In this document: positions 9,980 through 63,139 of the stretch, one piece after another
Layout of the letters: every line of letters starts with the position of its first letter
How positions within the stretch are numbered: position 1 is the first letter of the stretch
Origin: Heterodontus francisci
Taxonomy: Eukaryota
Reading direction: 5' to 3'
Assembly (NCBI RefSeq): GCF_036365525.1
Contig: NC_090403.1
Span: forward strand, 35,845,461 to 35,909,460
Length of the DNA: 64,000 nucleotides
Notes under the pieces: generated by a model
The model's input: only the letters and a program-made list of their open reading frames with translations
Told to the model about the DNA's origin: nothing
Databases searched by the model: none
Position numbers and translations under genes: made by a program

Positions 9980-11710
9980 ACAGGTTCTCCTCTAGACTGC
10001 TCATGCAAGGCAGGTGGTCCTCTTCCCCCGGGACGAGAGTAGGAGACCTGCCCGCTAGACCAAACAAGCCTGGATGTAGATTGTAGAGGAGGTCAGCAGC
10101 TGTGGGGTGGTCCCTTGAATCTGGCTGCAGTGCCACAACTGTGTTAATGACCTCATGCAGTCCGCCAAGTTAAGTGCACCACACATTGCTTTCCTTAGGG
10201 GCCTGCATGTGGCTATGCATGAGGGTGAGCTTGCTGGAAAAGGAATGCCAACTCAGTCACTAGCAATGGGGCCAGGCAGCAATATTGCCTATCATAGGCA
10301 TGGCAGCTTCTCGGTGAATAGCCCCGATCCATCAGAGTTGACTCCTACACTGCCACTTCTGAGTGGCCACATGCAGGAGACAATCCTGTGGCACCATCAT
10401 GGACAGTCAGGCAACTGCCAGAATAGGCATTGTGTGGGTCTTTGGCAATTAACAATGGTCATCTATGTGCTTGCAGGAGAAGACTGCCCACAATGCCAAG
10501 GAAAGGTGAACAGTGGTGTCCTTTTCATTGCAATCCTGACCCCCATGGAGGAGCAGGCACTAGAAATTGGAGGACAGCATGGGGCAGTTCCATCACAGAT
10601 GGTGAGACAGGAGTGGAAACACGAGAGAGCGAGTGGCCGAATGGATGGGCACAAGAGAGCCTCTGGAGAACATGAGGCATGGTTCTCATGTGTTCACCAC
10701 AGGTCAATTGGAGCTCCACACTAGGAATAGGCTGAAGGATGTGATGGAATGTGCATCATCCTCTCACATGGGTCGGAGATAAGAGCAGACAGCTCCAGAG
10801 ACCCTGAGGGACAGCTGTCCACTTCTGAGGAGGAGGAGGAAGCTTCAGAGGACGCACTGTCACATCATTCCCCCACACCCTCCATCAGTGCAGATACTCT
10901 CATATCAGTGGGTATCTGTTTGGAGTAGATTTGGGATAACAATCTGGTGAGCACAGCACAGACGGGCCTGAGCAGCTGATGGAGGCTATGTCGGCCGAGG
11001 CCACCAACACTCGGAGGACTGTGGGAGGGCCTGGCAATGCTGACTCTCAGGCTGATGATATGCCTCTGGAGCAGTCAGCAAGGCAGCATTTGCTGGAGCT
11101 ACAGCGTGAGGTGAGGGAACATCAGGCAGAGCTTCCAGAGGCTTTGCGCACCCAGGCATGGACGATGGAGGAGTCCATCCAGGCCTTAAGTGCCACCATG
11201 TCTCTTGCGTATGTGCACTAGGCTTTGTCCACTGAGAGATTGGTGACCCTTATGAAGAGTCATATCCAGCAAAGTACCCAGTGGATGCTGGAGATGGGCA
11301 CAGACCTGCATGCCATTGCCAATTCCATGATTTTTGAGCAGCAATGGCTGGGCAAGAGGTGGGGGAGAGGCACCTGGACTCACCACCAGATCCTTGCACT
11401 CCTCAGGTGAAGAGTGGGGTACTAGGGTGCCTTGGAAGGGTAGAGGAGCAGCTGCCTGATGCATCTGAGGACTCGTCTCAGGGTGCTCCTGGTGTGAACA
11501 GTGGCTCCTCAGCCCCTCTGTCAGTGACCCAAGTGCCTCACTTAGCCACGATGAGAGAGGAGGCCCTCCAGGCCCCTGGCAGCCAGAGGACGATGGCCAA
11601 GGTCATTCCGAGCCACTGGACAGCAAGGTCTGCAGCCTGCCTTCACTTTAGCTGACAGCGTGGTGTGAGCACAATGTAGCAGCACACATAAGAAATTTAA
11701 GAAGAGCACT
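9980..11710 (+). pseudogene. Harbinger Myb/SANT-like DNA-binding protein pseudogene (spliced)
   Basis: 10014-10169 reads VVLFPRDESRRPAR*TKQAWM*IVEEVSSCGVVP*IWLQCHNCVNDLMQSAK. A second exon after TTGCAG at ~10477 reads EKTAHNAKER..ILTPMEEQALEI. Coiled-coil-like remnant at 10979-11410. Many stops. Confidence 0.72.
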
Positions 11711-12049
11711 TAGCTGCGCTCAGGGTTCACAGGTTAAAATTTTGTTCAAGCATGCTGCCTCGCAATTTTTCCGTTTGCTAGTGTAAGTGTGATGTGGCAG
11801 GCAAGTGGTATCCCTGCATTTCTTGCCAACCACTAGGACTTCAGGAGTATCCAGGCTCCCTCAAAGGGTGTGATGAGTGTGACTAAACAGTGTGAGGTTG
11901 ATGCATTCCCCATGCCACAGTGTAATGTCACACTGGGTGCAGGTAAATAGCCAGGTCTATAAAGGACACGACAATAGGGGTGCAGTGGGCAGACACTTCA
12001 TTGAATTGCATGGATCTATCATCAAGGATCATGTGAAATGTGCCTGTAT

Positions 12050-13160
12050 TAGTGCAGCTTTCCTTGTGCATATCTCATGGCACCTTCCCTTTAATCCCAG
12101 CATCCAGCACCTAGACATCATCTTCCTCCACATCCTTATTGTCGGAGGAGGCATCGCGCTCCAGGATGTCCTCATTGTTCAAAGCTTCTCCCCTCTGTAG
12201 TTCCAGGTTGTGCAGTGCACAGCGTACCACCATTATTTGCAAGACCCTTGCTAGGGCATACTGAAGGGCTCTATCAGATCTATCAATGCATCCGAACCAT
12301 ATCTGCTCAATGGTCACACGAGTTGTCCCATGGCTGGTGTTGTAGCTCTCCTCTGCAGCAGTGCTAGGTTCTCTCACAGGCGTCAGTAGCCATGTCCTCA
12401 GTGGATCGTCCTTGTCACCCATTATCCATCTTTGAAAGCACAGAGGGGGGTATGAAAAGGTCTGGCACCTGGGACTGCCTTAGTATGTAGGCGCCAGGGC
12501 TACTTCCTGGGAACTGTGCACACACCTGCAGGAGCTATTTAAGGTGGTCGCAGACCAGTTGTACATTGAGCGAGTGAAGTCCTTCCTGGTCAGTGGGAGC
12601 CTTGATGGCCACATGCATGTAGTCAATGACACCCTGCACCCATGGCCCTCTCAGCTTGACTGTCTGGATCGGTGCAGAAGTGCATGTATTGGCTGGCCCT
12701 CATGAAGATAGCATTGGTGACCATTTTAATGCAGCGATGAGTCACAGACTGGGAGATCCCACACGTATCTCCAGTGGATCCCTGGAATGAGCCTGACGCA
12801 TAGCAATTCATCACCTTGGTGACCTTCAGCGCCACTGGCATTGGGTGGCCACCACTTCCCATGGGGCTCAGCTCGTCCTCCATCACTGCACACAGCTCTG
12901 TGATGGCCTCCCTGGAGAGGCAGAGTCTTCAGCGACACTGCTGCTCTGACATTGGAAGTCAGCTGAGCCTTAGTCAGTGGACCCTCTGTGGCAGGTAACC
13001 TCTTCTTCACACAGGAGGCTGGTTGCATGTCCCTCTGTGCCCTTTTCCTGCATTCCCTGTCTGCCTAAAGCTGCTGCTCCTTCTGCCCTGCTACCTCTGG
13101 CTGCAGCTCTCTCCCACTTTGATTCTCCTCCTCACTGGAGGACCTGAAGCCTGAATGCAT
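12050..13160 (-). pseudogene. Harbinger (DDE_Tnp_4, HARBI1-like) transposase pseudogene
   Basis: PMPVALKVT..NCYASGSFQGSTGDTCGISQS.THRCI; GDKDDPLRTWLLTPVREP..YNTSHGTTRVTIEQ..CIDRS..ALQY..HN. Frameshifts and stops. Confidence 0.88.
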
Positions 13161-14202
13161 AAGGCTGGTAGCTGCACTCACTCTCCAAGCCTCTTACCTG
13201 CCCCCCCTCCCCACTGCTTTACGCATACAAGTGCCAGCTCCGATATGGCACTCTGGCGGTATGCCCCCGCAGTTCTGGCAACTTTTCCCCTCCTCCCGAC
13301 TGACAGTGGAAATGCCCGTCCTGTTAAACCTATCTAGGATTGGCTGACCGCTAGCTCATCACCTTCTTATACTGAGGAGGTTCTGAACCCCCGTGCAATT
13401 GGAAAAAATCTGAAAACCGTGGGAAAATTGAAGTTAATTGCTTGGTGAACATGCTTAGTTACCTTGCTGCCATGTGTGAGTGCAAGGTCTTCCCACCATG
13501 CTGGGTGCCCTTCAGAATATCTGGTTGTGGCATGAAGACGTTGCCTTCTGTCCCGAGGCCTTCAGTCCTGATATTCTGACTCCTCTCAGATCCCAGCCCA
13601 ACCCCAACGGAGTTGGAAAATTCCGCCCTACTTTTTTTGGTACTCATTTCTTGAATGTCAAGACAAGGCAATGGCATGAAAACCATATTTCTACTTTGTA
13701 TGGATGGCAGTCCACTTGCAGGCAAACAAAATGGTGGTCGTACAGAAATGGTGGTTTCTCTCCAGAGGTACTTAAGCCCCTTTTCTTGCATTGTAGATTT
13801 TCCTTCAAATATTCCCTTCCTCCTGGATATCTTAATAGTCTTTTGAGGGTGAAAATAAACTGCAAAGAGTTTCCACAAGGAGCACTGGAACACAATCTTG
13901 CTTCGATGGTGATTCAAAGCACTAATGCATTTTTTTTTGCTGTACATGAATTCTTTGTTTTTTCTAACAAAGTGATCCATGTCTTATTAGGCATTTAAGT
14001 AACTGCTGCCTCTCAGGATTTGCTGCAGCAGTGCCATTCACCTATTGTTTCATGGGAATTAAATGAACAGATCTGTATAAGCCTAAGAGACCCAAATCAG
14101 TTCAAGTTACAATTGCTCTAATAGACCTTTAAAACACCTTGTCAGTGCTTGAGATCTGGAGGTTGCCTAGAATAATAATATTGCTTGAAGTCACTGAGAT
14201 GA

Positions 14203-14960
14203 GGGCGGGATTTTGTGCCCCCCACCCCTGCACACCCCCCGGGAGTGGGCTAGGAGACAGTGGGGGCTGTAAATTCGAGTGGAAGGCCAGGGGGTTGGTG
14301 CCATGCCTGTCATCTACCTGCCCCGTTGCTACTTCACCAGTGACGAGGGAAGTGGCAAGCAGCCCATCTGCCCTTAGGCCAATTGAGGGCCTTAAGAGGC
14401 CAGTTAATGGCCACCTAAGGGCCTCTTCCCGTTGCTGCTGGTATTTTACCAGAGGCTGTCGGCCACCGCCACCTGAGGAGGTCATCCAGTAATACTTGGC
14501 GTCCTCTTTGTAGGCTGGGGGTGGTGGGTGCCCTCCCCATTGGGAACCCTGTGCCCCATGGAGGCTACCTCCCTGAAACTAACCCCCCTAATGCTGCTTT
14601 CCAACCCACAACAACCCCCCTCCCACCCCCTCACTGGGGCACAGCCAATTGTCCCCAGCAAGGCCTGACCCCCACTTACGTCTTTGAAGGGTGACATCCA
14701 TTGCTCCTCTTCATGCTGGGTGCAGTTCCAGCAGTGGCAACCGCTCCCAGTGGCACTGCTGGGACTGAAAAGCTGCCAGCCCTCTGATTGGCCAACAGCT
14801 CTTAGAGGTGGGATTTCCTACCTCAGAGGGGCGGAAGTCCTGACTTATTCCAGTTAAGGGGCTGGGCCAGGCAAAATACCAGCAGGCCCAGCAGAGGTGG
14901 GCTCACCACCCCCAAATTTCCAGCCAGTGAGCAGGACTACCGCCTCATGAAATCCCAGCC
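14203..14960. mobile_element. Harbinger-like MITE (~760 bp)
   Basis: Termini GGGCGGGATTTTGTG and CATGAAATCCCAGCC are imperfect inverted repeats resembling the TIRs of the neighbouring Harbingers. No coding capacity. Confidence 0.62.
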
Positions 14961-15483
14961 AAGGGGTTTTCTTCTAGGTATACAAGAAAAGCTACTTACT
15001 GTTGTATAGGGCACATGTAAAGGACTAGGGGTAGACCAAAATAATAAGATAAATGACACAATATGAAAGATAAGGGCCACAAAATTCGACTCCTTAGTGC
15101 CTGTGATTTTCACACTATGGTTGCCGTTTTGGTTCTCGAATGCCAGCCGCACTGCACATGGACACTTCCAGCACAGCTTGTACCAGATGCCATTTTGGCG
15201 AGGGTGTTAGCACGGGTGTTAGGAGCCTGCATTGGAAGTATGCAGAGTAGGTAGATTGTGATGTCAGTCAGCAGCAGGAAGGACTCTCCTAGCCTTGCTA
15301 TTTAGGGAGATCATCAACTACTTTCGGGTTGGTTGCTAATTGATTTCTACTGGCTCTGCCTGAGTTTGTAGAAGTGCTGTGAGTTTTCTGCTGCTGGTTA
15401 AATTTGTTGATGTCGACAGGGAGTGGTAGAGAAGGCCTTGGTTCTGACTTCAAGAGTTCTGGTCAGACCAGTTGCTTCCAGTT

Positions 15484-16940
15484 GTGGGTGCTGTAGTTAC
15501 CATCCCTCTTGGCCTGCAGCATAACAAGGAGATGGAGCAGAGGCAGCACAGAAGAAGACAAGCTGGTCACGGAGGGAGGGGGAGAAGGGCTTTCAGCAGG
15601 AGACTTGATCCAGCTAGGGTCTTTAGGTAGCATTTCTCACGTCAACCGAAGCCAGGAACATTCTGTCCACTATCTCTGTTTTACGAAGGGTGCTCACAGA
15701 AATCTGCCACCTCTTGCAGGTAGTCCTGCAGCCTGGAGAGAAGGGCAAGGATGGCACTGCCAGTGGCTGTGATGGTGACCGTCGCCATGAGCATCTTCAT
15801 TTCGGAATCCTTCCAGACTGGAGCACACGACATCGCTAACATTTCCCAGCTTTCCATCCACTGCTGCATAAGGAAGGTGACTGACACTCTTTGTGCTAGG
15901 AGAGGGGAGTACATTGTGTTCTCTCTGACCAGGCAGAGCGTGCAAGTGGCTGTGCCAGGATCATGGGGTTCCCTGTGATACAGAGTGCCATCAACTGCAC
16001 ACACATGGTTTTGCAGGTGCTGAGTCAACAAAGGTTCCACTCCCTGAATGTGCAGTTGGTGTGTGACCATGGTCAGCACTTCATGTAGGTGAATGACACC
16101 CAGTCAGGTTGCCTTCATTCTGCGCCAGTCCACTGTTCCCTCAGTATTTGAGCCACCCGGGAGATGGTGGCGTGGTGTTAATATCACTAACCGAGTAATC
16201 CAGAGGCCCAGGCTAATGACCTGTGGACATGGGTTCAAATCCCACCACAGCAGCTGGTGAAATTTGAATTCAATTAATTAATAAAAATCTAGAATTGGAA
16301 GCTAGTCTCAGTAATGGTGCCATGAGAAACTAGCATCGTTTTCTGTGTAAAAACTCATCTGGTTCATTAATGTCTTTTTGGGAAGGAAATCTGCTGTCCT
16401 TACCCGGTCTGGTCTACATGTGACTCCAGCCCCACAGCAATGTGGTTGACTCCTAACTGCCATTTGAAATGGCCTAGCAAGTCACTCAGTTGTCAAGGGT
16501 AATTAGAGATGGGCAACAAATGCTGGCCTTGCCAGTGACGCCAAAATCCCATGAAAGAATCAGAAAAACACATCAAAAGTGGCTGCTGGATGACCGGGTG
16601 ATCTGCTGCCCACCTGGCTTCTCAACCCAACCACATGGCCAGCATTCACATACTGAGAGCCATGCCGCCACACGAAACATCGTAGAGCAGAGCATTGGTG
16701 TGTTAAAACAATAGTTCTGCTGCCTGGACCGCTCTGGAGGAAAGCTATAGTATTCACTGGAGTATGTGCCATGATTCGTTGGGGTCTGCATAACCTTCTC
16801 ATCATGAGGATACAGCCTTTGCCACCAGGGTTATGGCAAGCAGCTGAGCAAGAGGTGAGGGAGTAAGAGTATCAGAAGGAAGGGAAAAAGCAATCAGTAC
16901 ATCCCCTTCTGGCCAGACTGTTATGATCATTTTACAACAG
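15484..16940 (+). pseudogene. Harbinger transposase pseudogene
   Basis: ALPVAVMVTVAMSIFISESFQTGAHDIANISQ..IHCCIRKVTDTL; QSAINCTH; FHSLNVQLVCDH; HAATRNIVEQSIGVLKQ*FCCLDRSGG. Interrupted by the SINE at 16159-16568. Confidence 0.85.
16159..16568 (+). mobile_element. tRNA-headed SINE, full-length copy (LINE head + LINE tail family)
   Basis: TGGCGTGGTG A-box-like, GGTTCAAATCC B box, same body and tail as 86-1278. Confidence 0.85.
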
Positions 16941-17129
16941 TTCCAAGGGAACACCACCCCATCCCCCATTCTACAACAGTCTCACACCTTACAATCCCTC
17001 TGTCACTGACAATCACAGCTTTCCCTTGGCCACAATGCTGAAATAAAGCCACCACAAAATAACCATTCCAAACCAACTTTATTAATCAAACCATCCAATA
17101 TTCCATGCAAAACTCTGTGCATTCCCTTT

Positions 17130-19110
17130 GCCTGGCCTAGTGCTCCTATGCAGTTCTGCCCCAGTGGCTGCAGCATGGGTGGTGGAAGGCTGCTGACTTT
17201 CGGTAGGGGAGGCTGCAGACAGCCTTGCGAATACCCACAAGCAGCTCTGGGCCTGGAAGGCCTCACGTTGGACTGCACCATCTCCGCGTGGCAGCAATCC
17301 GGGCTGACTGGCTGTCAGGCAACAGCAAGGGCAGTGACAGAGTGGAAATGGGGGGAGGCCGAATGCTGTCATCCTGAGAGAGGACAGCAGGTTTGCACAG
17401 CACGGAGCCTCAGCAATCCTTGTAATCTGTTGGAGCACAGAATGTTGGGCTGCTGTGAAACTCTACAAGCCTCTTTAAACACTGGTATCTGCAGCTGTAA
17501 TAGCAGCAGTCTGAGCCTGAATGGCAGCAAGCTGAGAGTGCATGACCTCCATCTGAGCTTCCACTGCATAACTCAGACATCGCATAGCTTCTGCTTATGC
17601 TGCAATGAAAGCTGAGACATTGGCCATCAGATGTTGCATCATGGTTCCGTCTTCAAGTGGAAAGGATGGGCTCCAAGTTCTGTGCAAAGCCCTGTGCCAA
17701 GTTAGTGCCGGACTCCTCCATGCTCCTTGAAAGAGACAGCAAACTTTCTGGCAGGTCTGCCAATGCACCAGCTGTGGAGAGCTGGAACTTGCACTACTCT
17801 TTCCCCCTGCCCTGGCTACAGGCCTCTCGTGTCCTGTGACTCACCACATGCAAATCACCTCCATGCTGTCCTCTAAAGTACGCACTGTACCAGTATCTGA
17901 GCTGATAGCTCTGTATGTGAGATCGAGTAACGGTGTTTCATCATCATCAGTCTCCTGTTCCTCTTGGACTTCATATTCCTGCGCCATTTCCTGGCCAGGT
18001 GGCAGTTTTTCTGAAAGGAGAAAGACACAAGGGTATGGTTGCAGGGAGGGAAGGTTGGGAAAGCAAGAGGTGCATGCTTAGACCATCTGCAGCTTGCAAA
18101 TCATAAGAGATTGTAGGAGGAGGGGGAAACGGGATGTGAGAGCGTGGGTTAGGCAGGAACATACTGTGACCTTTTATGGTTGCAGCCCTGCCGCTGGCCC
18201 ACACTGGGTTAGGTGCTGCTGCCTGCAGTTGTGCGCCACTTGTCCTGCAAGAGAGAAAGAGGTGCATCAGATAGTGTGCTGCACTGTGTTCAGGTGATGT
18301 GGCTGTCATAGTTGAATAGCTGGCAGTGTGTGCAAGCTGTGAGATCTGGGTGTGAGGCTTGCAACAGTGCTAAAGGTGTGAGGGTGAGGTGAAGCTGTGA
18401 ATGCTTGGTATGAGTCATGCTTGGTAGAGAATGATGGTGGATGAGTGAAGGGTGTGATGAATGGAGCAGTGTGAGGCTAATGGTTCATTTGCAAGGATAA
18501 GGTTCAAATCCCACCACAGCAGCTGGTGGAATTTAAATTCAATTAATTAATAAAAGTTCAATTACTTAATAAAAAATCTGGAATTGAAAGCTAATCTCAG
18601 TAATGTTTCTATGAAACTGTCATTGATTGTCGTAAAAACTCATTTGGTTCACTAATGTCCTTTAGGGCAGGAAATCTGCTGTCCTTACCTGGTCTGATCT
18701 ACATGTGACTCCAGACCCACAGCAATGTAGTTCACTCTTAACTGCCCTCTGAAATGGCTCAGCAAGCTACTCAGTTGTCAAGGGCAATTTGGGATGGGCA
18801 ACAAATGCTGGCTTTGTTAACACCCACATCCCATGAAAGAACACAAAAAAAGGCATTTGAAGATGGATTCACTGAGCTTGACCACTCATGTGAGGTCATT
18901 AAGCTTCTTCCTGCACTGCATATAGGTACTCAGGGCTTGACTGCTTGCATTGACAGAAATGGTTACGTGCTCCCACTGCCTTCCCAGTGTCTGCCTGAAG
19001 GACTTCCTGGACCCCTGCGGGTAGAGGACCTCTCTCCTCTTGTTCACCTCCAGGGCCTCCAGTGCTGCGTCTGAGAACCTTGATGCACCCTCTCGGCCCT
19101 GTTGCACCAT
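17130..19110 (-). pseudogene. Harbinger Myb/SANT-like protein pseudogene (spliced)
   Basis: MVQQGREGASRFSDAALEALEVNKRREVLYPQG...WEHV..SVNASS...MQCRKKLNDLT (18886-19110). Downstream exon remnants near 18150-18247 and below 18012. Confidence 0.78.
18501..18851 (+). mobile_element. tRNA-headed SINE, 5'-truncated at the B box
   Basis: Begins GGTTCAAATCCCACCACAGCAGCTGG. Same body and tail as 16159-16568. Lies in the intron of the Myb pseudogene. Confidence 0.85.
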
Positions 19111-21513
19111 TCTCTTCTTCCTGCTCAGAATGTCTTCTGCAGGCAGTTCCAGCACTTGCTTTAGCCAGAATGCATCTCCCCTTTAAATGATGCGGCCTGG
19201 CTTTAAGAAGTGCAGGCTAGCTTTAAGTGGTGCTAGTCTCACATGAACTTGGGCCCCCTGCTCAGCCATGCAACCACTCAGCAAGCAGCATATTTACTGC
19301 ACGCTACTATCATTTAAATTGGCAGGCAGCACAAAGTTTGCATGCTGCCTGCATCAGAACAAATGAGTGCAGATTAATTGCGCATCACGGTCCCCGTGCC
19401 TGTTTTTGGGCCTAATCCAACTTTTCTTCCAAGACCTGTCACATGCCACAAGTCCAATTAAGGATGGTGGGCGGGCTCTTGAAGCTGCAGGGCCAATAGG
19501 AGGTCCGCCAGTATGGAAGGAGCTGCTGCCTGCCGTTCTAGGTAAGGGAGAGAGAGGCTGCCTCTATTTTGAGGAACCCTTTCAGCAAATTTAAAGAAAT
19601 TGAAATAAAAAATGGCCACAGCTGCTGGTGGAAGGGGCCGCCTATGGCCGCAGCTGTGCTCAGGTAGGCGGGAGGGCCTCAAAGCCTGCTTGGAGTGCAA
19701 ACCCTCCAGTCTGTCGCCAGGAGGCCGTGTCCAGATAGAGTCGACCTCTGATAATTGGCCTAATTGGCTTTTAACTTAAATTAATTGGTTACCCGCGGTG
19801 TGCAAGTGTGAAATTATGTGCCCACCTACCTCTGTTCTCGCCCCTATATCTGGGTGGAGTTCAGTCCCATATTGTAGTCAATTCCAACAAAGATCGCTGA
19901 ATAAGATGGGCAAAGGGCAAGTCTCTTATAGCCTGATGAGTGGAGCAACACGAAATGTGCTCATGTTTGCATGGACCCATAGAATTGGGTTAATTTTCCA
20001 ATTTCAGCTTCACAAATCTAGAAATTTATACTTTTGCAAAATACTCCCAGACACTGATCCAAATGCATGGTACTTGGAAAGTTGCAGCCACTAGGTCACT
20101 GGGGCAAGTTACTTTCCAGATTTGCCAGGTTGGAAAGGAAGGCTATTTATCCTCTTTGTAAATAACACAAATGCATTTCTTCTTCAGTCTAAACTTCTTC
20201 ATTGTTTCCCTCACTGTGCTTTACCCTTTGCACTCTATATCAGCAGTTTTCCAAGTCTGATAAATCTTAATCCCCAAATAATATCTTGTCTTCTTTTTTC
20301 CTAGGATGCTGGGAGGAAACCATCTTGGATAAATTGAAAAGGAAACTATCCATTCATCAAGCAAGTGATAAAACAAGTTAAAAACTGGACCAGACTTGAA
20401 TACATAACACTAAGATTAATCTATCTTCACCTCAATGAACTTCATGGCATGATATGAGGAAATCTTTGCCCACAGATGCATAGCAGGCAACGTTGGAAAA
20501 GATTGAACAAAGGAAACTACAGAAAGCCTCTTCCTCCTCCTCCATTCATAGGATGCATTTATAAGTTAACTTTGTGGTGGAAATATTCCAGCAAAGCAGT
20601 AGTTTGATGTGTACAATGTAAATTTGGCATCATCCATATGGCTCCCAGAATATTGATCTCTCCCTGCTGGGTAATCTTATACACAACATAAAAACAACAT
20701 CCTACCAGCACTTCCTCATCAATGTTTTCGAAGATGTGTTTGCCCCTCTGTCTTTGGATTTAGATTGATCACATCTGCTATCTTAGTCTTGGAGTCATCA
20801 CTTCAATTGCTCCAAAAATATCATACAGATTGGGTGAATTGGATTTTTGCCATCTGGCACTAGAGACCATTGTCCTGTTGCACTAACAGTAAAATCTTGT
20901 CAGTGTGCAATATTAGAGGCAGACAGAACTATTGGACTTCCACTGGACAAGCTGACAGAATAATATTTTAAAAAAGCCTGCAAAACTCAGCTCCATGTGT
21001 CCCAATCATTATTGCTTTAAAAGCTTTTGTCCACAATTTGATGGAATATTTGGCCTTTTTTAGCAAGCAACTCATATAAATCGATATCTTGTCCCTGATA
21101 CAGGTGAAGCCAAATGCTTAAGCACAGCTTGTTGTGCTAAAACCTGGGTAATATATATTCCTTAGCCATTTTCTCCTTTGGTTATACTTTGAAATGTTTC
21201 CCTTTATTAAAGGCATTCGTAATGTTATTGCTGTCACTGTGCTTCCATTTTCTTCTGTGATTTTATTGACATCAAGATACAGAATAATGTAAGGTACTGA
21301 GGCTTATTTACAATAGTTGTCAGTTAATTAGAACATCTTAAAATTCTGCTCCATAATCTGTATTTTTTGTACACTAAGCCATCGTGAACTACAGTAGAAC
21401 TCCTGCACCGCATTCAGAAATAACTAGCAATTACTAGAGCAGGCTCTTAATATTCCTAAGAGTACAATATAAATACTGACATCTTTGATTGTGTTTTTAA
21501 TTCTTTATTATTC

Positions 21514-29850: not shown

Positions 29851-32010
29851 CTTCTTCTTCGGCCTCCTTGTCTCGAGAGACAATGGGTAAGCGCCTGGAG
29901 GTGGTCAGTGGTTTGTGAAGCAGTGCCTGGAGTGGCTATAAAGGCCAATTCTAGAGTGACAGACTCTTCCACAGGTGCTGCAGATAAAATTGGTTGTCGG
30001 GGCTGTTACACAGTTGGTTCTCCCCTTGCGCTTCTGTCTTTTTTCCTGCCAACTGCTAAGTCTCTTCGACTCGCCACACGTTAGCCCCGTCTTTATGGCT
30101 GTTCGCCAACTCTGGCGATCGCTGGCAACTGACTCCCATGACTTGTGATCAAAGTCACAGGACTTCATGTCGCGTTTGCAGACGTCTTTAAAGCGGAGAC
30201 ATGGACAGCCGGTGGGTCTGGTACCAAAGATGAGCTCGCTGTACAATGTGTCTTTGGGGATCCTGCCATCTTCCATGTGGCTCACATGGCCAAGCCATCT
30301 CAAGTGCCACCGGCTCAGTAGGGTGTAAATGCTGGGGATGTTGGCCGCCTCGAGGACTTCTGTGTTGGAGATACGGTCCTGCCACCTGATGCCAAGGATT
30401 CTCCGGAGGCAGCGAAGATGGAATGAATTGAGACGTCGCTCTTGGCTGACATATGTTGTCCAGGCCTCACTGCCGTAGAGCAAGGTACTGGAGGACACAG
30501 GCTTGATACACTCGGACTTTTGTGTTCCGTGTCAGTGCGCCATTTTCCCACACTCTCTTGGCCAGTCTGGACATAGCAGTGGAAGCCTTTCCCATGCGCT
30601 TGTTGATTTCTGCATCGAGAGACAGGTTACAGGTGATAGTTGAGCCGAGGTAGGTGAACTCTTGAACCACTTCCAGAGCGTGGTCGCTGATATTGATGGA
30701 TGGAGCATTTCTGACGTCCTGTCCCATGATGTTCGTTTTCTTGAGGCTGATGGTTAGGCCAAATTCGTTGCAGGCAGCCACAACCCTGTCAATGAGTCTC
30801 TACAGAAACTCTTTAGTGTGAGATGTTAAAGCAGCATCGTCAGAAAGAGGAGTTCCCTGATGAGGACTTTCCGTACTTTGGTTTTTGCTCTTAGATGGGC
30901 AAGGTTGAACAACCTCCCATCTGATCTTGTGTGGAGGAAAATTCCTTCTTCTGAAGACTTGAACGCATGTGAGAGCAGCAGGGAGAAGAAGATCCCAAAC
31001 AGTGTAGGTGCGAGAACACAGCCCTGTTTCACGCCACTCAGGATAGGAAAGGGGTCTGATGAGGTGCCGCTATGCTGAATTGTGCCTTTCATATTGTCAT
31101 GGAATGAGGTGATGATAGTTAGTAGCTTTGGTGGACATCCGATCTTTTCTAGTAGTCTGAAGAGACCACGCCTGCTGATGAGGTCAAAGGCTTTGGTGAG
31201 ATCTATGAAAGCAACGTAGAGGGGCATCTGTTGTTCATGACATTTCTCCTGTAGCTGGCGAAGGGAGTACAGCATGTCAAAGGTCGATCTCTCTGCTCGA
31301 AAGCCACACTGTGCCTCAGGGTAGACATGCCCAGCCAGTTTCTGGAGCCTGTTTAAAGCGACTCAAGTGAAGACTTTCCCCACTATGCTGAGCAGGGAGA
31401 TTCCACGGTAGTTGTTGCAGTCACCTTGGTCACCCTTGTTCTGATAGAGGGTGATGATATTGCCATCACGCATGTCCTGTGGTACTGCTCCCTTGTCCCA
31501 GCACAGGCAAAGCAGTTCATAGAGCGCTGAAAATATAGCAGGCTTGGCACTCTTGATTATTTCAGGGGTAATGCCGTCCTTCCCAGGGGTTTTTCCGTTG
31601 GCTAGAGAATCAATGGCATCACTGAGTACGGATTTTGTTGGCTGTACGTCCAGCTCATTCATGACTGGCAGAGACTGGGCTGCATTGAGGGCGGTCTCAG
31701 TGACAACATTTTCCCTGGAGTACAGTTCTAGGTAGTGCTCCACCCAGCGGTCCATTTGCTTGCGTTGGTCAGTGATTGTGTCCCCTGATTTAGATTTGAG
31801 GAGGGGCGATTTTCTTTATGGTTGGCCCAAAAGCTCTCTTAATGCCATCATACATTCCTCTGATGTTTCCGGTGTCAGAGGCCAGCTGAATATGACTGCA
31901 TAGGTGTTGTCAGTCGTCATTTGCGCAGCGCCTGGCTGTTCTTTGTGCAGTACTTCTGGCTGCTTTAAGTGCTACGGATGTTAACTCACTGGGGGCTTTC
32001 TTGTCGTTCA
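29851..32010 (-). mobile_element. 5'-truncated RTE-clade (BovB-like) LINE
   Basis: NYRGISLLSIVGKVF; LRQLQEKC.EQQMPLYVAFIDLTKAFD; GVKQGCVLAPTLF; LLYGSEAWT; C-terminal FICSTCGRVCHSRIGLYSH. (GAA)n tail. A few frameshifts. Confidence 0.92.
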
Positions 32011-36019: not shown

Positions 36020-38058
36020 TAAGAGGATATGTTTCAGGTACGGGCTAGATACATTCCAACAAAGGCAAAAGGTAGGGGAACCAAAGCCAGGACTCCTTGG
36101 ATGACAAGGGAGATAGAGAATATGATGAAACAAAAAAAGAGGGTGTATGATGCATGTCAGATAAATTCTTCAAGCGAGAACCAGGCCAAATATAAGTTAA
36201 GAGGGAAAGTGAAGAGGAAAATAAAACTGGTAACATGGAATAAAATGGCAGTTAATATGAAAGGGAACTCAAGAATCTACCAGCAACAAAGTAGTAAGCA
36301 GGTAGTAAAAGGTTGGGTGGGTCCTATTAGGGACAAAGAGGGTGCAATATACGTAGAGGCGCAGGGCAAGGGCTACAATACTTAATGAGTACTTTGTATC
36401 ATTGTTTACGAAGAAAGAGGATGCTGACAAAATATCGGTAGAAGCAGAGATGGTGGAGGTATTGGTTGGGGTGAAAAGTGAGAAGCAGGAGGTATTGGAA
36501 AGGCTGTCAATCCTGAGTGTAGATAAGTTGCTTGGTCCTAATGGCATGCATCTGAGGTTGCTAAAGGTAGTGAGGGTGGAGATAGCAGAAGGGCTTGTCA
36601 TAATCACCCAATCTTCCCGAGATATGGGGGAGGTGCCAGAAGATTGGAGACAGGCAAATATGACACCCTTGTTCAAGAAAGGGTGTAAGGACATCTCTAG
36701 TAATTACAGGCTGGTCAGTTTAACATCAGTGGGTAAAGTTTTACAAACAATAATCAGGGAAAAGTCAATAGGTTAATTAATGATATACACCACAGATTTG
36801 TAAAAGGCAGATCGTGCTTGTCTAATCTAATTGAATTTTTTGATGAAGTAACAGAGAAGGTTGATGAATGGAATGCAATGGATATTGTCTATGTGGATTT
36901 TAAGGGAATGTTTGACAAAGTACCACATAAAAGGCCCATTAACAAAATTGAGGCTCATGGAATAGAAGGGTCAGTGTCAGCTTGGATTAAAAAAAAATTG
37001 GCTTAAGGACAGAAGGCAGCGGAAATGGTTATTTTTCAGATTAGAGGATGGTAGTCAGTGGTGTTCCCCAAGTGTCAGTGCCAGGGCCATTCTTTTTTTT
37101 GATATATACAAATGACTTGGATATTGGGATACAGAGTAAAATTTCAAAATCTGTTGATACCAAACTTGGAGGTGTGGCCGACATTGAGGATGATACTAAT
37201 CAACTGCAACAGGGCATAGATAGGCCAGCAGAATGTGCTGACAAATGGCAGATGGAATTTAATACAGAAAGTGTGAGGTGATACATTTTGGCAGAAGGAC
37301 CAGGGAGAGGCAATATAGGCTTAATGGAACAATTCTAAAGAGTGTGCAAGGATAAGAGGTATCGTGGGTTCATACGCATAGATCTTTGAAGGTGGCAGGA
37401 CATATTAGAGAGTAATTAACAAAACATATGTGATCTTGGGCTTCATAAATAGAGGTATTGAGTACAAAAGCAAGGAAATTATGCTGAACCTTTACAAAGC
37501 TCTGATTAGACCACAACTATGTATTGCCTCGAGTTCTGGTCATCACGCTTTAGGAAGGATGTGAGGGTCCTTGAGAAGGTGCAGACAAGATTTACCAGAA
37601 TGGTTGCAGACATGATTGATTTTAGCTACAAGGTTAGGTTGGAGCAGCTGGGTTTGTTTGCCTTGGAGCAAGGGAGATTGAGGGAAGATTTGACAGAGGT
37701 ATACAAGATTATGACCGGTTTAGACAAGGTAGACAAAAAGCTGTTCCCATTAGCTGAGCATACATGGACTAGGGAAAACAGATTTAAGGTTTTGGGCAAG
37801 CAATGCAGGGGGATGTCAGGAAGAACTACTTCACGCAGCAAATGGTAATGACCTAGAACACTCTGCCTATGACGATGATGGAAGTGGAGACGATCAAAGA
37901 TTTCAAATGGAAATTGAATGGGCACTTGAGTGAAATAAACTTGCAGGGCTACGGGGATAGAGCAGGGGAATGGGACTGACTGGATTGCTCTACAGAGAGC
38001 TGGCATGGACTTGATGGGCCAAATGGCTGCCTCCTGTGTCATAATGATTCTATGACTC
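36020..38058 (+). mobile_element. CR1 LINE, 5'-truncated, RT to 3' tail
   Basis: VPEDWRQANMTPLFKKG; NLIEFFDEVT..VYVDF..FDKVPH; SGVPQ.SV.GP; FWSSRFRKDVRVLEKVQTRFTRM. Tail ATGGGCCAAATGGC...(ATTCTATG). Many stops. Confidence 0.9.
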
Positions 38059-39412: not shown

Positions 39413-40185
39413 TACACTTTACAAATAAAACCCCACTTGTACTGAGATGAGGAAACCACAATTGGTCCCTGTGTCCCTGAACTAGACAGAGTACAAGTTT
39501 TCCAGGGTTCCCATTCCTGAACTCCATCCAATAAGTCCTGCTTTCCAATGGATGCATGAGGATAGGGTCAGGCTAGACTACAACACCTATTAAAGTTGAA
39601 TACCCACCAGTAGTCATTATGCAGGCTCAAATGTGAAGAATGACCATTTGGGTGAAGTAGCAGAGTGCTGCTGGTCCCTGTGAATTAATAGCTCAGCACT
39701 GAGTTGGCATCTTTAGGGGAGGAGGAAATCAAAGCAAATCCCTTTCACTTTAGAAGGATTTCACTATGTCAAGCATAATGGATGGCTATCAGTGCATTGC
39801 ACGACAATAAACCGATTAAAGGGTTCAGGTGACGTCGTAAACATTATTTGCACCTTGAGATTGAATTACCACCATAATTCACGAACAGCTATTTGCAATT
39901 ATTTTAAAGTTAATGAATTTTTTCATTCATTTTGACATAGTTGCCAATTTCTTTTTTGCTTTTGATCTAATGCTGTGCGACTGCGAATTCCAGGATTTCA
40001 GAATTGTGCCATATGAAAACATCAATTCACTAAACCATCTTATTTTCTGGTTTGCACTGTTTGAATTTCATTGATATACAAGTTCATTCTGAATGGTAGT
40101 CTTATTGCTGTTGCCTCACTGATTGATGATTTCAAAATTAGATCATCAAAATGTTAGTACCAGCAGGTGCTGCCTAAGGAGCCTA

Positions 40186-42087
40186 GGATGTTGATAGTGG
40201 GGATTCAGCGATCATAATGCCATTGAATGTCAAGTCGATGCCGGGCATCTTCCAGTTAGTTGTTTAATTGTCCGCCACCATTCACGACTGGATGTGGCAG
40301 GACTGCAGAGCTTATATCTGATCCGTTGGTTATGGGATCGCTGAGCTCTATCTATCGCATGCTGCTTACGCACTTTGGCACGCAAGTTGTCCTGAGTTGT
40401 AGCTTCACCAGGTTGATACTTCATTTTTGAGGTATGCCTGGTGCTGCTCCTGACATGCCTTCCTGCACTCTTCATTGAACCAGGGTTGGTCTCCTGGCTT
40501 GATGGTAATGGTAGAGTGGGGAATATGCCGGGCCATGAGGTTACAGATTGTGTTTGAGTACAATTTTGCTGCTGCTGCTGATGGCCCACAGCGCCTCATG
40601 GATGCCCAATTTTGCATTGTAGTTCTGTTAGAAATCTATCCCATTTAGCACTGTGGTAGTGCCACACAACACGATGGAGGGTATTTTCAATGTGAAGGCG
40701 GGATTTCATCTCCACAAGGACTGTGCGGTGGGGCGGCACAGTGGTGCAGTGATTAACACCGCAGCCTCACAGCTCCAGCGACCCGAGTTCAATTCTGGGT
40801 ACTGCCTGTGTGGAGTTTGCAAGTTCTCCCTGTGTCTGCGTGGGTTTCCTCCGGGTGCTCCGGTTTCCTCCAACATGCCAAAGACTTGCTGGTTGATAGG
40901 TTAATTGGCCATTATAAATTGCCCCTAGTATAGGTAGGTGGTAGGGAAATATAGGGACAGGTGGGAATGTGGTAGGAATATGGAATTAGGGTAGGATTAG
41001 TATAAAGTGGGTGGTTGATGGTCGGCACAGACTCGGTGGGCTGAAGGGCCTGTTTCAGTGCTGTATCTCTAAACTAAACTAAGTACTGTCATGGACAGAT
41101 GCATCTGCGGCAGGCAGATTGGTGAGGATGAGGTCAAGTATGTTTTTCCCTCTTGTTGGTTACCTCACCACCTGCTGCATACACAGTCCAGCAGATATGT
41201 CCTTTAGGACTCGGCCAGCTCGGTCAGTAGTGGTGCTACCGAGCCACTCTTGGTGATGGACATTGAAGTCCCCCACCCAGAGTACATTCTGTGCCCTTGC
41301 CACCCTCAGTGCTTCCTCCAAGTGGTGTTCAACATGGATGAGTACTGATTCATCAGCTGAGGGAGGGCAGTAGATGGTAATCAGCAGGAGGTTTCCTTGT
41401 CCATGTTTGATCTGATGCCATGAGACTTCATGAGGTCCGGAGTCGATGTTGAGGACTCCCAGGGTAACTCCCTCCTGACTGTATACCACTGTGCAGCCAC
41501 CTCTGCTGGGTCTGTCCTGTCAATGGGACAGGACATACCCAGGGATGGTGATGGCAGCGTCTGGGATATTGTCTGTAACGCATGATTTTGTATGACTATG
41601 TCGGGCTGTTGCTTGACTAGTCTGTGGGCCAGCTTTCCCAACTTTGGCACAAGCCCCTAGATTTTAGTAAGGAGGGCTTTGCAGCATCAACAGGGCTGGG
41701 TTTGCCATTGTCGTTTCCGGTGCCTAGTTCAATGCTGGGTGGTCCATCCGGTTTCATTCTGTTTTATTGACTTTGTCGCAGTTAGATACAACTGAGGGCA
41801 TTTACGAGTCAACCATATTGCTGTGGGTCTGCAGTCACATGTAGGCCAGACCAGGTAAGGACAGCAAATTTCCTTCCCTGAAGGACATTAGTCAACCAGA
41901 TGGGTTTTTACAACAATTGACAATGGTTTCATGGCCACCATTAGACTAGTTTTTAATTCCAGATTTATTAATTGAATTTAAATTCCACTTTCTACTGTGG
42001 TGGGATTCGAACGCATGTCCCCAGAGAAATATCCTGGGTCTCTGGGTTACTAGTCTAGTTACAATATCACTACCCCACCACCTCCCC
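40186..42087 (-). mobile_element. CR1-group (Zenon-like) LINE with tRNA-like 5' head; single ORF starting with AP endonuclease; internally deleted and 3'-truncated
   Basis: Head has A-box-like TGGTGGGGTAGTG and B box GTTCGAATCC (42003-42012). APE motifs RLVKQQPDIVI, LLLITIYCPPS, WVGDFNVHHQEWLGSTTTDRAG. Linker KPGDQPWFNEEC. Post-RT piece LTFNGIMIAESP joined at ~40234. Confidence 0.82.
40731..41082 (+). mobile_element. HE1-type V-SINE inserted in the Zenon-like LINE
   Basis: Full-length copy with (TAAAC)n tail. LINE sequence continues on both sides. Confidence 0.9.
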
Positions 42088-48100: not shown

Positions 48101-48248
48101 CTAACAGCACTGTGGGTGTATCTACCTCATATGGACTGCAGCGGTCCAAGAAGGCAGCTCACCACCATCTTCTCAAAGGCAATTAGGGATGGGCAATAAA
48201 TGCTGGCCTAGCCAGCGACACCCACATGCCATGAATGAATAAAAAAAA
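48101..48248 (+). mobile_element. 3' end of CR1-group LINE whose tail is shared with the tRNA-headed SINE
   Basis: Reads NSTVGVSTSYGLQRSKKAAHHHLLKGN* then GGATGGGCAATAAATGCTGGCC...GAATGAATAAAAAAAA, matching the SINE tails at 1214-1278, 16501-16568 and 18781-18851. Confidence 0.75.
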
Positions 48249-57892: not shown

Positions 57893-60049
57893 CTAGAAAT
57901 AGCCTCTCAGCGCTGCACTGAAACGTCATCTGGATTATATGGTCAAATCCAGAAAAGGGCTTGAACCCACAGCATTTTGACTTGCAAGACGAGAGTGCTA
58001 CTAATTAAGTCAAGCTGACAGAAGCTAGGATTTTTTTTATGTTCTTGGAAGGAAATGGAGAGATTAATTAACCCCTTTACAAGTTTGGTTCATCACCATC
58101 TATGTTTGCTAATTGCACTATCACTCTGATGCTGAACCATATCCCAAAACCTTTCATGTCATTGTGAAAATGGCAGTATAATGCACAAACAAAAATATAA
58201 ATTACTGGAAAGACTCAGCGGGTCAGGCAACATTGCTGGAGAGAACTGGTAAGTTAATGTTTTGGATGTGAGTCCTTTTCCAAAACTGGATAATATTGTC
58301 AATGAACGGCATTTAAAAAACAGAAGGAAGAAAACCACACCCATGTGCCCACACATCCACACCCTAATATGCTTAAGTGGAGTTATTTACTTTATGACTA
58401 GAAGTCAAGAGTGCTATGAATTGTACGCATTATTTCTCTGTGCATTTCCATCAAGTGAGACACTGCACAAGGACCATAGTTTTTCAAAAAGTTTACCCTT
58501 TAGTGACACAGGAACAGGAGTCAGCCATTTAGACCCTCAAGCCTGTTCCACTGGTGCTTAAGGAGAGCATGACTGATCTGCGACTAACTCGATACACCCA
58601 ACTTTTCCCCTTATTCATTATATTTTTGTGAACCAAAGGTATTATCAATCTCCGTTTTAAAATTAACAATTGACCCAGCATCAGTTTTCCAAGAAAACCT
58701 TTTTTGGAAGCTGTGCATATTGCACAGGTGACGATACTTGAGTTTTCTCATTCTGCCCACTGTGAACCCTTGACCCTGGGTAAGGGAAGTAATGCTGCCA
58801 CCAATTTTCAGGAGTGCCCACATTCAAACGTCTGTACCCCCAAAGTGATCCTATTTATTTTTAAACCATCCTGTTCAGGACCAAGGACATTTGCAATAAA
58901 TTTATCATTGTAACTAAATTTTGAAGGTGTTCTCCGTTTCAAATAGCGATGCTTTGATCTGACTTCTTTCTACCCAGTTCAATCCAAAAATCTCTGTTTT
59001 AAACCTGATTACAACTTAATCACTCATAATGATCAATCAGGCCTCAAGGCTACCATTATAGATATCTCTTTATGTATTGATGTGGCATTCCATTCATTGG
59101 AATCTAGCGATATAACAGTTGCCAGTGAGTTAAAACCACCAGAGTAGAGTGGGCCGCAGCAGTGTTAAGGCCTACTGGGGAGTATTTTCCTGCTTTTTGC
59201 TCCTGGTGTGCAAATGCAATGCTAAATTGGAAAGTTATTCCTAAAGATGCAATGCGCTGAGTTTGATTTCACTGAGAGCTAGTAATAAGATATTGTTAAA
59301 AGATATCAGCTTTTAGTTTATGCACCTACTAATACTATCTTTTGCAAATGCTTGTGTTTGTCAAGGCAATGAATGCGAGTTGGAGGGATGAAACACTTTT
59401 GATTTTGGTATGCAATATCAGGATCAAGGAAATGAGCCTGAGGCTCAGTGCTAACATTCCCAAGTGATGAGTTCAAGCACCACACCATGCAGTCCCGGCG
59501 ACTGGAGATTACAATATGGGGCAGGATTTTTGGGTCCCGATTGGGGCTGAGTGCAGACGTGGGGCAGGTGTGAAAATTAATTCTGCCGGCCAGAGTGTCG
59601 GTTTTATGTCACTGTTTTTGCCGCTGGCGATGTTGTTCAGGATGGAGGTAGGCAGGCCTCAGAACCCCATGCAAGTTGGCCTCTCAAACTCACACCTCAC
59701 AGCACTGCTCGCTATGCCAGTAGCCATCAAAGTCACTGCAGCCTTGAACTTTACCTTTGGCTCTTTCCAAGGATCAGCAGCAGGAGATGAGGCCAACTAA
59801 TCTTGTTAATAAGTCAGCCCATTTAAGGGCCAGTTTGGAATTTTGTTGGGGGTGCACTGGGGTTGCACACTGGATTAGGGACAGTCCAGGTGCACGGAGG
59901 TGGCAACACAGCGGGGACCCAGTCATGGCTGCATCATGAAATTAGATGGGCCTATAAAGAGAGAGACTGAGCCATTGGCACACAGGTACCATCGGGTGAG
60001 CAGAGGTAGCGGAGTGAGTGGTCTGTATTTGTTTGGGCAGTGGAGGGGG

Positions 60050-61330
60050 TCATGATTTTCCTGGCATTGTGAGGCCGTGGAGGGGTTGGGCTCCAGAAAT
60101 TCTGTGAATGCAGCTGAGCAGAAGCAAGGCAACAGCTGGAGATGGAATTACGGTTCTCAGATGTTGGGTCGCGTGGCGAGGAGGATCAATATCCTCATCG
60201 TCAGAGGCAGAGCCCAGGGCTTGAGGAGGGAAGAGGAGAGGAAGGAAGGGCACGGAGGCAAAGAAGGCCATACACTCAGCATTGAGTGTACTGCCAAAGA
60301 CGAAGCTACCTGTACATGTCAGAGAACCAGTGCTGCAGGAGACTGAGATTTGTGCCCTAGTCATGGACAACCTCACACCTCACAGCACTGCTCGCTATGC
60401 CAGTAGCCATCAAAGTCACTGCAGCCTTGAACTTCACCTTTGGCTCCTTCCAAGGATCAATAGCAGACTTAGTGATGTCTCTCAAGCGGCAGCACACCTT
60501 TGCATCTCACAGGTCATTGATGTCCTATTTGTGAGAGCTGGGCAGTACATACAATTTCAAACAGATGGGACCTCACAGGCATAAAGGGCAGTGGGACTTA
60601 CCTCCATCGCTGGATTCCTGCAGGTGCACAGCATCATCGATTACACCCATATGGCACTGAGTGAGCAGCCAATGAGATTCACCAACAGGAAGGGCTTCCA
60701 TCCCCTCAACATTTAACTGGTCTGTGACCACAATAAGAGCTTCATGCATGTGTACACTCACTATCCTGGCAGTTGCCATGACACCTTCATCCTCTGGAAG
60801 TCCAGGGTGCCTCAACACTTCATTCTATCCCCCAAACTTCATGGATGGATTCTAGAGGATGAGGGATATCCCTTGAAGAAATGGTTACTCAACCCATTCA
60901 TGAATCGGAGACAAAACCACAGAGGCAATGCAACCGAAGCCATCTGCTCGCAAGGACCACCATCGAGCAGGTCATCGGGCTTCGGAAGATGTGGCTTTAT
61001 AGCCTGCAGTGCCTAGACCAATCAGGCGGTGCCCTGCAGTACACTCCTGCAAGGGTCTCAAGCATTATGGTGGTCTGCTGTGTCTCCATAACATGGCCCT
61101 CCAGAGGGGTGCAGACCTTGAAGACTGGAAAGACACAGCACATTGGAGGAAAAGGAAGAGTGGGAGGTCAAAAAGGAGGAGGAGGAAGAGGAAGAGGAAG
61201 ATGCAGAGCAGAGAGGTTCCCCAGCTGGATAGAGAGATGGCTGGGGTTGGCGCAGGATTTGAGAGTCTCGCAAGAATGCCAACAAAGTCAGGGAGCATCG
61301 GATGCAGGAATGTTTCAGCTGAGCCTTTCT
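60050..61330 (+). pseudogene. Harbinger transposase pseudogene
   Basis: MPVAIKVTAALNF; SQAAAHLCISQV; IIDYTH; NRKGFHPLNI*LVCDH; YPGSCHDTFIL; GWILEDEGYPLKKWLL; ARTTIEQVIG; CLDQSGGALQY. Confidence 0.88.
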
Positions 61331-61487
61331 AACCCAGGAGGACTGTATGCTCTGGAACTCACTTTGAGCTGCCTGTGAAAATATTCTCATTGAAGACACA
61401 ACCTTGAATGGATCCGTTCTTACTGCAATGAATGATACACATCTGTCCAGTGGTCTCACCGTCCCCCATCTTCCCTTGGCCACCTCT

Positions 61488-61760
61488 TAAACCTGTTTCA
61501 GCACTGCACCCAATTCCTCTGCACTACACTCCTGCTGCTGACAAGTCCAGCCACCTCCAGCAATGCCTATTTTGTTTGGCTGCATGGTCTTCTGCCACCC
61601 TCTGGAAAGACGACCTCCCTCATCTCCCTCACAGCCTCCAGGAGCACCTAAGGTCAGCATTAGTGAAGCGAGTTCCAGCACTGCCTGGGTACCAAGCCTC
61701 TGCCGCCTCCTACTGCTGCCCTGGTGCTTGCATCCTGCTTCCAAATGGCTGCCTCAGTCA
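61488..61760 (-). pseudogene. Harbinger Myb/SANT-like exon 1 remnant
   Basis: RFTNADL / VLLEAVREMREVVFPEGGRRPCSQTK*ALLEVAGLVSSRSVVQRNWVQC*NRF across one frameshift. Confidence 0.72.
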
Positions 61761-63139
61761 TGGTTGTCATGATGCCTTCAAATTGAGCCAGCACTTCAGC
61801 AGTCCCACTTCCATCCCCCACATGCCACCGCTAATTGGTTGCCCAACCTGCCCTCCGGCCAATTAGCATCCCACCTCTGCAAAGATCGTGGGGTGTGACT
61901 ACTAACCTCTCAACCTCCCCCTCCCCCCACTAGGGGCAAGACCCAAGTATGGTCCCGATGTCGCAATCCCGACTTTGGAGGCAAAATTCCTCCCTTGATG
62001 CCCAGTGGGGGTATATGTGTCCGATTGATACAATTGCCTTCCACTTCAATATAAAGAATAGTTGGGGCTCTTTAAACTTGGTCGCAGCTCACCTGGGAGA
62101 AAGTACTCCAAAGATAAAGTGATGGGAAACTACATCAGCTACTCTTCCTTGGCTCAGGAATAAATCATGCATGAGACTGGAGTTAGGACCTGCCCTACGG
62201 CAGAACTCAATCGACAGAATCAGTATCAAGATTCTCCAATCAGGTACAACATAAGGCGAAATTTCTATTCTGCTTCAATAATGTATTTTGAGTTTAGTCT
62301 CCAGTCACTCCCTAGACCTTCACATCTCCCACGTTAACAACCTGCCAAGACAATTTACCCCGAAAGAGTACTAAATTTGAGATGTTTTTGTTCTGTGGAG
62401 TCTCGTCCATTAGGAACCGGGTCTAGAGTGGACAAATTCATTTCACACGCAGCCGATAAGACAAGCGAAGAGATGAGAATCATTTTCCCAAATGCCTGTA
62501 TAATTTACAAACCAGATCTTGGGTGAGAAAGGAGACCATTTCACTCAATTCACAATGAATACATTTTTCAAGAACTCCAATCTTCGAGTGTCAAAAGAAA
62601 AAGCTATGTGCAGCATTGAGAAGTGCAAGACTCCAATCTAAGTTTGTTCTTTTTTATTTGTCCTCGGGATGTGGGTGACACTGGCAAAGCTGCATTTATT
62701 GTCTGCTCCTAGTTGCCTGAAAAAGTGGTGGACCTTCTCTGTGAACTGTTTTCAAAGCCAATGTGCAGTTGTCTCTTCTTAACGGCATCTGTTTCTGTGA
62801 TGTTAGAAAGCTTTGAGCAGAACTTTACCAAATTGCATTGTTTAATTTTTTTTGTAGTAATGTCAATTTGTTAATATTGCATTACCACTTAAAATTGAAT
62901 TGGTTTAATCCAGTTTGGGTATTTATTTATATGCTGGGACTTGCTTTAACTCCATCAGCTACAACAGTACATAATGATCCCAAGGAGCCTATCTGTTTGA
63001 TAATTACATGAACATTGCTTCTTATACCAGGGATCTAGGAAAGGATGAGGAACTGGGAAAGGTAGAGTTAGAAGGCAGAGATGTAAGATGGGGAGGATGA
63101 GGAGGATCAGTGGTAAGCGGGGGCAGGAGTAATGCAAAC

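Follow-up and report, generated by a model that had tools for sequence, protein, structure and literature searches.

RNA polymerase III (Pol III) is normally reserved for short, noncoding RNAs. The LINE R2 has a single frame, and its RNA, which Pol II does not make, is translated without relying on a standard cap and AUG; that RNA is a Pol I cotranscript freed by an HDV-like ribozyme, and the R2 endonuclease belongs to a different class from that of the element described here. By analogy, this element, Zenon, would resemble R2 in being a single-frame LINE with a proposed non-Pol II RNA and translation without cap or AUG, although, unlike in R2, an Rfam search of the Zenon element found no ribozyme. 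Pol III can yield translatable RNA, as stated in the relevant passage of PMC8223928, citing Gunnery and Mathews 1995. In passages of PMC5786205, PMC11481361, PMC6740152, PMC4824008, and PMC3747384, the split between Pol II for LINEs and Pol III for SINEs is kept, or only tails are discussed. A search of the openly accessible full-text literature returned no tRNA-headed or Pol III-transcribed autonomous LINE.

Among the closest described systems are SINEs. SacSINE1 and the DeuSINEs (SacSINE1, SacSINE1-CM, and LmeSINE1) are presented in PMC5499810 and PMC2746220 as a tRNA head, a Deu body, and a LINE-type tail, 463 nt in length, and their partner is proposed there, from the tail alone, to be L2-2_CM or a CR1-4_DR-like element. 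DeuSINEs are noncoding, whereas the Zenon LINE is coding and shares head, body, and tail with SINE forms. Persaeus, from lepidopteran Zenon, comprises nonautonomous derivatives made by repeated internal deletion of a Zenon, as seen here, but according to PMC6740152 it has neither tRNA homology nor a Pol III promoter, unlike the SINE forms here. B2, Dip, and Ves, all T+ SINEs, end in AATAAA, a variable T run, and an A tail, a 3' end like that of Zenon; according to PMC8466645, their Pol III transcripts become polyadenylated, and T runs can also arise after insertion. These SINEs are 150 to 300 nt long, noncoding, and reported there only in mammals, whereas Zenon has a T4+ run in only a quarter of its ends.

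Zenon itself has been reported from elasmobranchs (CarCar, RhiTyp, ScyCan, HypSab, and SquAca; PMC13343379, Genome Biol Evol 2026) as a ~3.3-kb element with no ORF1 and an A tail, and it is the same family as that studied here, an identity based on length and on a match by eye over the first ~400 nt of the supplementary rows. The family is already published; the head, the purge of T runs, and the missing AUG go undiscussed in the main text of PMC13343379, in which tRNA, polymerase, Pol III, Deu, and promoter have 0 occurrences.

The window, a 64,000-nt stretch of the Heterodontus francisci genome, holds on its minus strand (42087 to 40182) a dead, decayed copy of this elasmobranch Zenon LINE. 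The family belongs to the CR1 group and has a single open reading frame for an AP endonuclease and a reverse transcriptase (RT), no ORF1, and a poly(A) tail. We regard the locus as a remnant of a 3.29-kb autonomous LINE whose tRNA-derived head is fixed and whose transcription is likely carried out by Pol III. The copy begins with a head derived from tRNA-Thr(AGT) (41985 to 42087, minus strand), as aligned to the genomic tRNA-Thr; the family 5' end falls at 42087, a boundary that is sharp in other copies. The A-box-like motif, the anticodon-like arm, and the B box of the preliminary description are all present. The A-box-like motif (42067 to 42077) has its first base at family position 11, which is also its place in the SINE forms, and differs here from the family by two mismatches; the 7-nt anticodon loop (42047 to 42053) is identical to that of tRNA-Thr(AGT); and the B box (42003 to 42012) is identified by motif and by alignment to tRNA-Thr. 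Next comes a structured, conserved body common to the SINE forms (41788 to 41910), a putative Deu domain by its fit to the published SacSINE1 layout rather than by an alignment.

The main frame starts without an AUG and encodes an Arg-rich leader and a decayed AP endonuclease (41084 to 41790, minus strand), the latter matching Pfam PF14529 at 41160 to 41519 (E value, 6e-9); as had been proposed, there is no ORF1, and the family majority is one frame. A short AUG-started frame of 46 codons (41617 to 41757, minus strand) overlaps it in another phase. An unrelated, young, ~350-nt tRNA-headed SINE with a short-repeat tail, labeled V-SINE in the preliminary description, was inserted later on the plus strand (40732 to 41083). 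Beyond it, again on the minus strand, lie the main-frame linker (40248 to 40731; family positions 1033 to 1513) and a short remnant of the late RT (40182 to 40234; positions 2572 to 2625), where the copy stops without a tail. The RT core had been considered deleted, and positions 1514 to 2571 are missing, but so is the entire 3' end (2626 to 3286). The tail piece at 48101 to 48248 has no T3, as noted earlier; it lies on the other (plus) strand, however, and comes from another copy of the family, of whose 3' end it holds positions 3138 to 3285 and an A tail. The window also contains, on the plus strand, a SINE form of the family at 16159 to 16568 (head 2 to 311 joined to tail 3207 to 3285) and two further SINE-form copies (86 to 355 and 18501 to 18851). 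Elsewhere in the window, an RTE element (29851 to 32010, minus strand; copies ~95% alike) and a CR1 element (36020 to 38058, plus strand; copies ~80% alike) served as controls. GC-richer stretches at 10000 to 19800 and 59400 to 62000 carry open frames that look, by eye, like a Harbinger-type transposase and Myb-like partners.

To place the copy in its family, we searched the genome with the head plus endonuclease and obtained 12,685 candidates. Eighteen unbroken copies give a majority sequence of 3286 nt with a single 975-codon frame and no ORF1, and natural copies give Pfam matches to PF14529, PF03372, and PF00078, that is, endonuclease and RT. Among 39 fetched copies, 33 reach the A tail, outlining an element of ~3.27 kb with a sharp common 5' end. 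The closest named proteins are from sharks, and in an RT tree built without named Zenon references, the family groups with 16 relatives with a support of 1.0. An unbiased sample, made of eight 50-kb stretches at round coordinates (400 kb in total), has 28,837 of its 400,000 bases (7.2%) covered by the family and contains, besides five headed copies, 12 5'-truncated copies and nine head-plus-tail forms. Contigs of four sequencing runs from four organisms cover 30/30 bins of a full copy, head-to-tail joints included; these contigs are assembled, their RNA status is guessed, and starts, strand, and level are not readable from them. A search for older subfamilies in the genome returned the same young family and isolated none, and the viral contigs searched held no relatives. 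Shark gene models P0002, P0006, P0014, and P0015 contain pieces of the Zenon protein and are probably annotation run-ins or exonized copies.

In the elasmobranch Zenon family, the head is fixed. A pattern combining the loop with the B box matched the genome at four places, and ARAGORN calls two of these as tRNA-Thr(AGT); the Zenon head aligns to the genomic tRNA-Thr(AGT) with an insert of ~20 nt before the B box. ARAGORN called no tRNA gene within the window, and Rfam gave no match to the head of the window copy and only a weak tRNA-clan match (E value, 0.3) to a better family copy. The head-LINE junction, which on an earlier view might have been peculiar to this locus, occurs in 39/39 other scored hits at 84 to 88% identity, in a search whose head-plus-endonuclease query favors such hits, and in 5/5 copies of the random sample that reach the frame start. 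No alternative common 5' sequence was found among 5'-truncated copies, and the 22 truncated pieces include no headless subfamily with another 5' end. The published elasmobranch rows likewise start with the head in 7/7 cases, as compared by eye over the first ~400 nt (PMC13343379 supplement); their A and B boxes vary within the usual degeneracy, and these first ~400 nt contain no T4. Two hagfish rows and one coelacanth Zenon row lack the head and have T4+ runs in their first ~400 nt, the coelacanth 5' end being poorly supported. Like a tRNA-derived SINE, the Zenon family has a head that derives from a tRNA and holds A and B boxes; the other SINE attribute, being short and noncoding, fails for the 3.29-kb LINE and applies only to its deletion forms. 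As to whether the inserted SINE at 40732 to 41083 itself heads a LINE, 0/37 of its head hits in fetched loci run into a frame of their own.

Two observations concern RNA structure. The head insert (family positions 49 to 75) folds into a second hairpin in the young SINE forms and the older ones alike, although their sequences differ, which suggests selection on RNA structure at this place. Separately, 5' truncation points cluster at family positions 185 to 199 (5/38) and 333 to 343 (5/38); both clusters are edges of the predicted structured body and may mark stalling of the RT at RNA structure, although the query may bias the clustering.

To determine how the LINE and the shorter forms are related, their ends were compared. 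The sampled SINE families measure 479 nt (head 1 to 323 plus tail from 3143) and 406 nt (head 1 to 311 plus tail from 3207), with other head/tail breakpoints at 338/3140, 333/3145, and 347/3158. Setting aside a 12-nt gap, the young 479-nt form matches the two ends of the young LINE at ~99% identity, and the LINE and all SINE forms have their first base at the same position. Judged by these joints, the SINE-like families are internal deletions of the Zenon LINE with the same 5' end. The 406- and 479-nt forms correspond to the SacSINE1 layout by its published description, not by sequence alignment. The 3' ends read GAA, a variable T run, and then A, with T4+ before the A tail in 18/72 LINE ends and 17/67 short copies. 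Target-site duplications had been expected outside the head, but 52 LINE copies and 60 SINE-form copies showed none above control, their match lengths being like those of the control, in a comparison that would miss duplications of <4 nt.

The preliminary description had also drawn attention to the absence of sense-strand TTTT. The count is correct: excluding the inserted SINE, the 1545 nt of the window copy have 0 T4+, four T3, and 10 A4+ runs on the sense strand, with only one T3 in 40186 to 41800, and the RTE and CR1 controls of the same window contain four and eight T4+ runs, as stated. Taken from the window alone, however, the absence does not reach significance (base shuffle, P = 0.064; dinucleotide shuffle, P = 0.41). 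The family majority has 0 T4 and nine T3 in 3286 nt and so lacks internal sense-strand T4+ runs, as a Pol III unit should. Its main frame contains five T3 against 13.0 expected under a synonymous-codon shuffle (P = 0.0002) and 0 T4 against 2.1 (P = 0.078), 3.5 (P = 0.027), or 3.9 (P = 0.009) under three nulls, so that T4 alone gives modest support (P = 0.009 to 0.08). There are two 5-mers with four T in the family versus 16 in the RTE element of the same base composition, and TTA accounts for 0/92 Leu codons of the Zenon frame. The RTE and CR1 frames fit their nulls for T runs, and sense-strand T is also low (20%) in the RTE control.

In raw copies (at least 85% identity; 263 pieces, 216 kb, mutually dependent), T4 occurs 40 times versus 316 expected, an 8-fold deficit, while A4 stands at 0.86 of expectation. 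The base-composition rate that would have undercut the earlier proposal is thus not what is seen, and the deficit is absent from the raw-copy controls of the same genome (RTE, 102 versus 108 expected; CR1, 170 versus 96). Other LINE pieces of the genome have T4 at 0.72 to 1.49 of expectation; older Zenon pieces of <85% identity are still at 0.37. A control search for L2 matched only a 240-nt repeat. Among metagenome relatives (74 of 80 loci kept; six with frames of <450 codons left out), T4 is present in 74/74 (1 to 45 each), T3 stands at 0.60 to 1.47 of expectation versus 0.28 in the Zenon family, and Phe makes up 2.8 to 7.0% of the protein versus 1.8%. Conserved Phe residues are nonetheless kept in Zenon at 11/14 positions, like in the relatives. 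None of the 74 relatives has an A/B box pair within 900 nt upstream, where some contigs end short of 900 nt, and ARAGORN found no tRNA in 60 relative loci. As the copies go back to a small number of masters and the head was acquired a single time, the contrast counts as one evolutionary event. A test of T-run creation that set shared against private variants (T3, 37/552 versus 6/103; T4, 5/552 versus 0/103) had no power to reveal continuing selection.

The frame bears the mark of selection. Non-CpG variants have a nonsynonymous-to-synonymous ratio of 1537:411 when private and 138:130 when present in five or more copies; this fall with copy sharing indicates that the Zenon masters were coding and their frame was under purifying selection. 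The first AUG of the main frame does not come before codon 285, and the endonuclease starts at codon ~42. An AUG at family position 342, in an A-rich context, is intact in 63/74 copies and opens the 46-codon frame in the other phase; an AUG at that place is visible by eye in 6/7 published heads (PMC13343379 supplement). In the overlap, shared non-CpG changes are synonymous in 8/12 cases for the main frame and in 2/12 for the AUG frame. This pattern implies that the Arg-rich leader is coding and that its start is likely non-AUG; it disfavors a frameshift joining the 46-codon leader to the main frame. In several close relatives, a basic leader that begins with an AUG occupies the corresponding position.

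That a SINE merely landed beside a LINE fragment of low T content could be argued from the window, where the lack of T4 has a P value of 0.064 and no target-site duplications bound the element. Chance of this kind is refuted, and hardly credible, given the junction in 39/39 scored hits (query biased), 5/5 random copies, and five other species, together with the 8-fold T4 deficit in raw copies. A more serious alternative, which we nevertheless consider unlikely, is Pol II transcription that starts in the captured head or body or arises by read-through, with the T-run deficit a relic of a Pol III phase or a matter of RNA stability and with SINE head exchange keeping the A and B boxes fresh. LINEs, including Zenon and its derivative Persaeus, are taken as Pol II users in a passage of PMC6740152, and the A-rich-context AUG kept in most copies and seen in most published heads (by eye, PMC13343379 supplement) counts in favor of this alternative; yet the AUG frame shows no protein selection by the counts above. 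Pol II is also reported to be able to use Pol III promoters in vectors, which counts against Pol III. The deficit, however, is limited to T runs: pyrimidine tracts (9 versus 5.0 expected) and GT-rich tracts (21 versus 13.3) show no depletion, and AATAAA is present at family positions 119, 331, and 3232, two of them in the 5' leader, which argues against an avoidance of Pol II signals for splicing or polyadenylation. Headless poly(A)-tailed relatives lack the deficit, and the shared first base of LINE and SINE forms also speaks against Pol II.

A division of labor, in which the RNA to be copied is an uncapped product of Pol III and protein is supplied in trans from rarer Pol II or read-through transcripts, would account for the head, the precise 5' end, and the T-run purge without cap-independent translation, and the abundance of the family (7.2% of 400 kb) would suffice to place copies in many Pol II units. 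We think it improbable, as the purifying selection on the frame is simplest to explain when one RNA is both copied and translated, and the frame lacks an AUG start even for a capped RNA. Transcription of the family by Pol III is the likely reading, well but indirectly supported.

Under Pol III transcription, TFIIIC would bind the A and B boxes and Pol III would initiate at the first G, reading all 3.3 kb because terminators have been purged from the coding strand, and would stop at the 3' T run in some copies or in flanking DNA. Through the AATAAA that lies ~45 nt from the end, the transcript could be polyadenylated, as happens with T+ SINEs. Translation of this uncapped RNA would begin at a non-AUG codon, possibly aided by the structured body, which is the weakest step, and the Zenon protein would use target-primed reverse transcription to copy both its own RNA and the SINE forms. 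An older Deu-type SINE, present in the common ancestor of sharks and rays, was probably the source from which the head was captured.

On balance, we favor the view that a 3.3-kb coding retrotransposon is transcribed end to end by Pol III and translated uncapped from a non-AUG codon, its frame recoded against terminators, and that it thrives in sharks and rays while spawning SINEs, with the Deu domain perhaps a translation initiation element. Pol III transcription, if shown, would be categorically new. If true, the family would provide a natural multi-kilobase Pol III mRNA, breaking the division between coding LINEs transcribed by Pol II and noncoding SINEs transcribed by Pol III, and a natural model for the translation of uncapped RNA. 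It would then be recognized as the true partner and parent of the Deu-type SINEs of sharks, and the role of conserved SINE bodies, to which published accounts assign no known function, would become directly testable.
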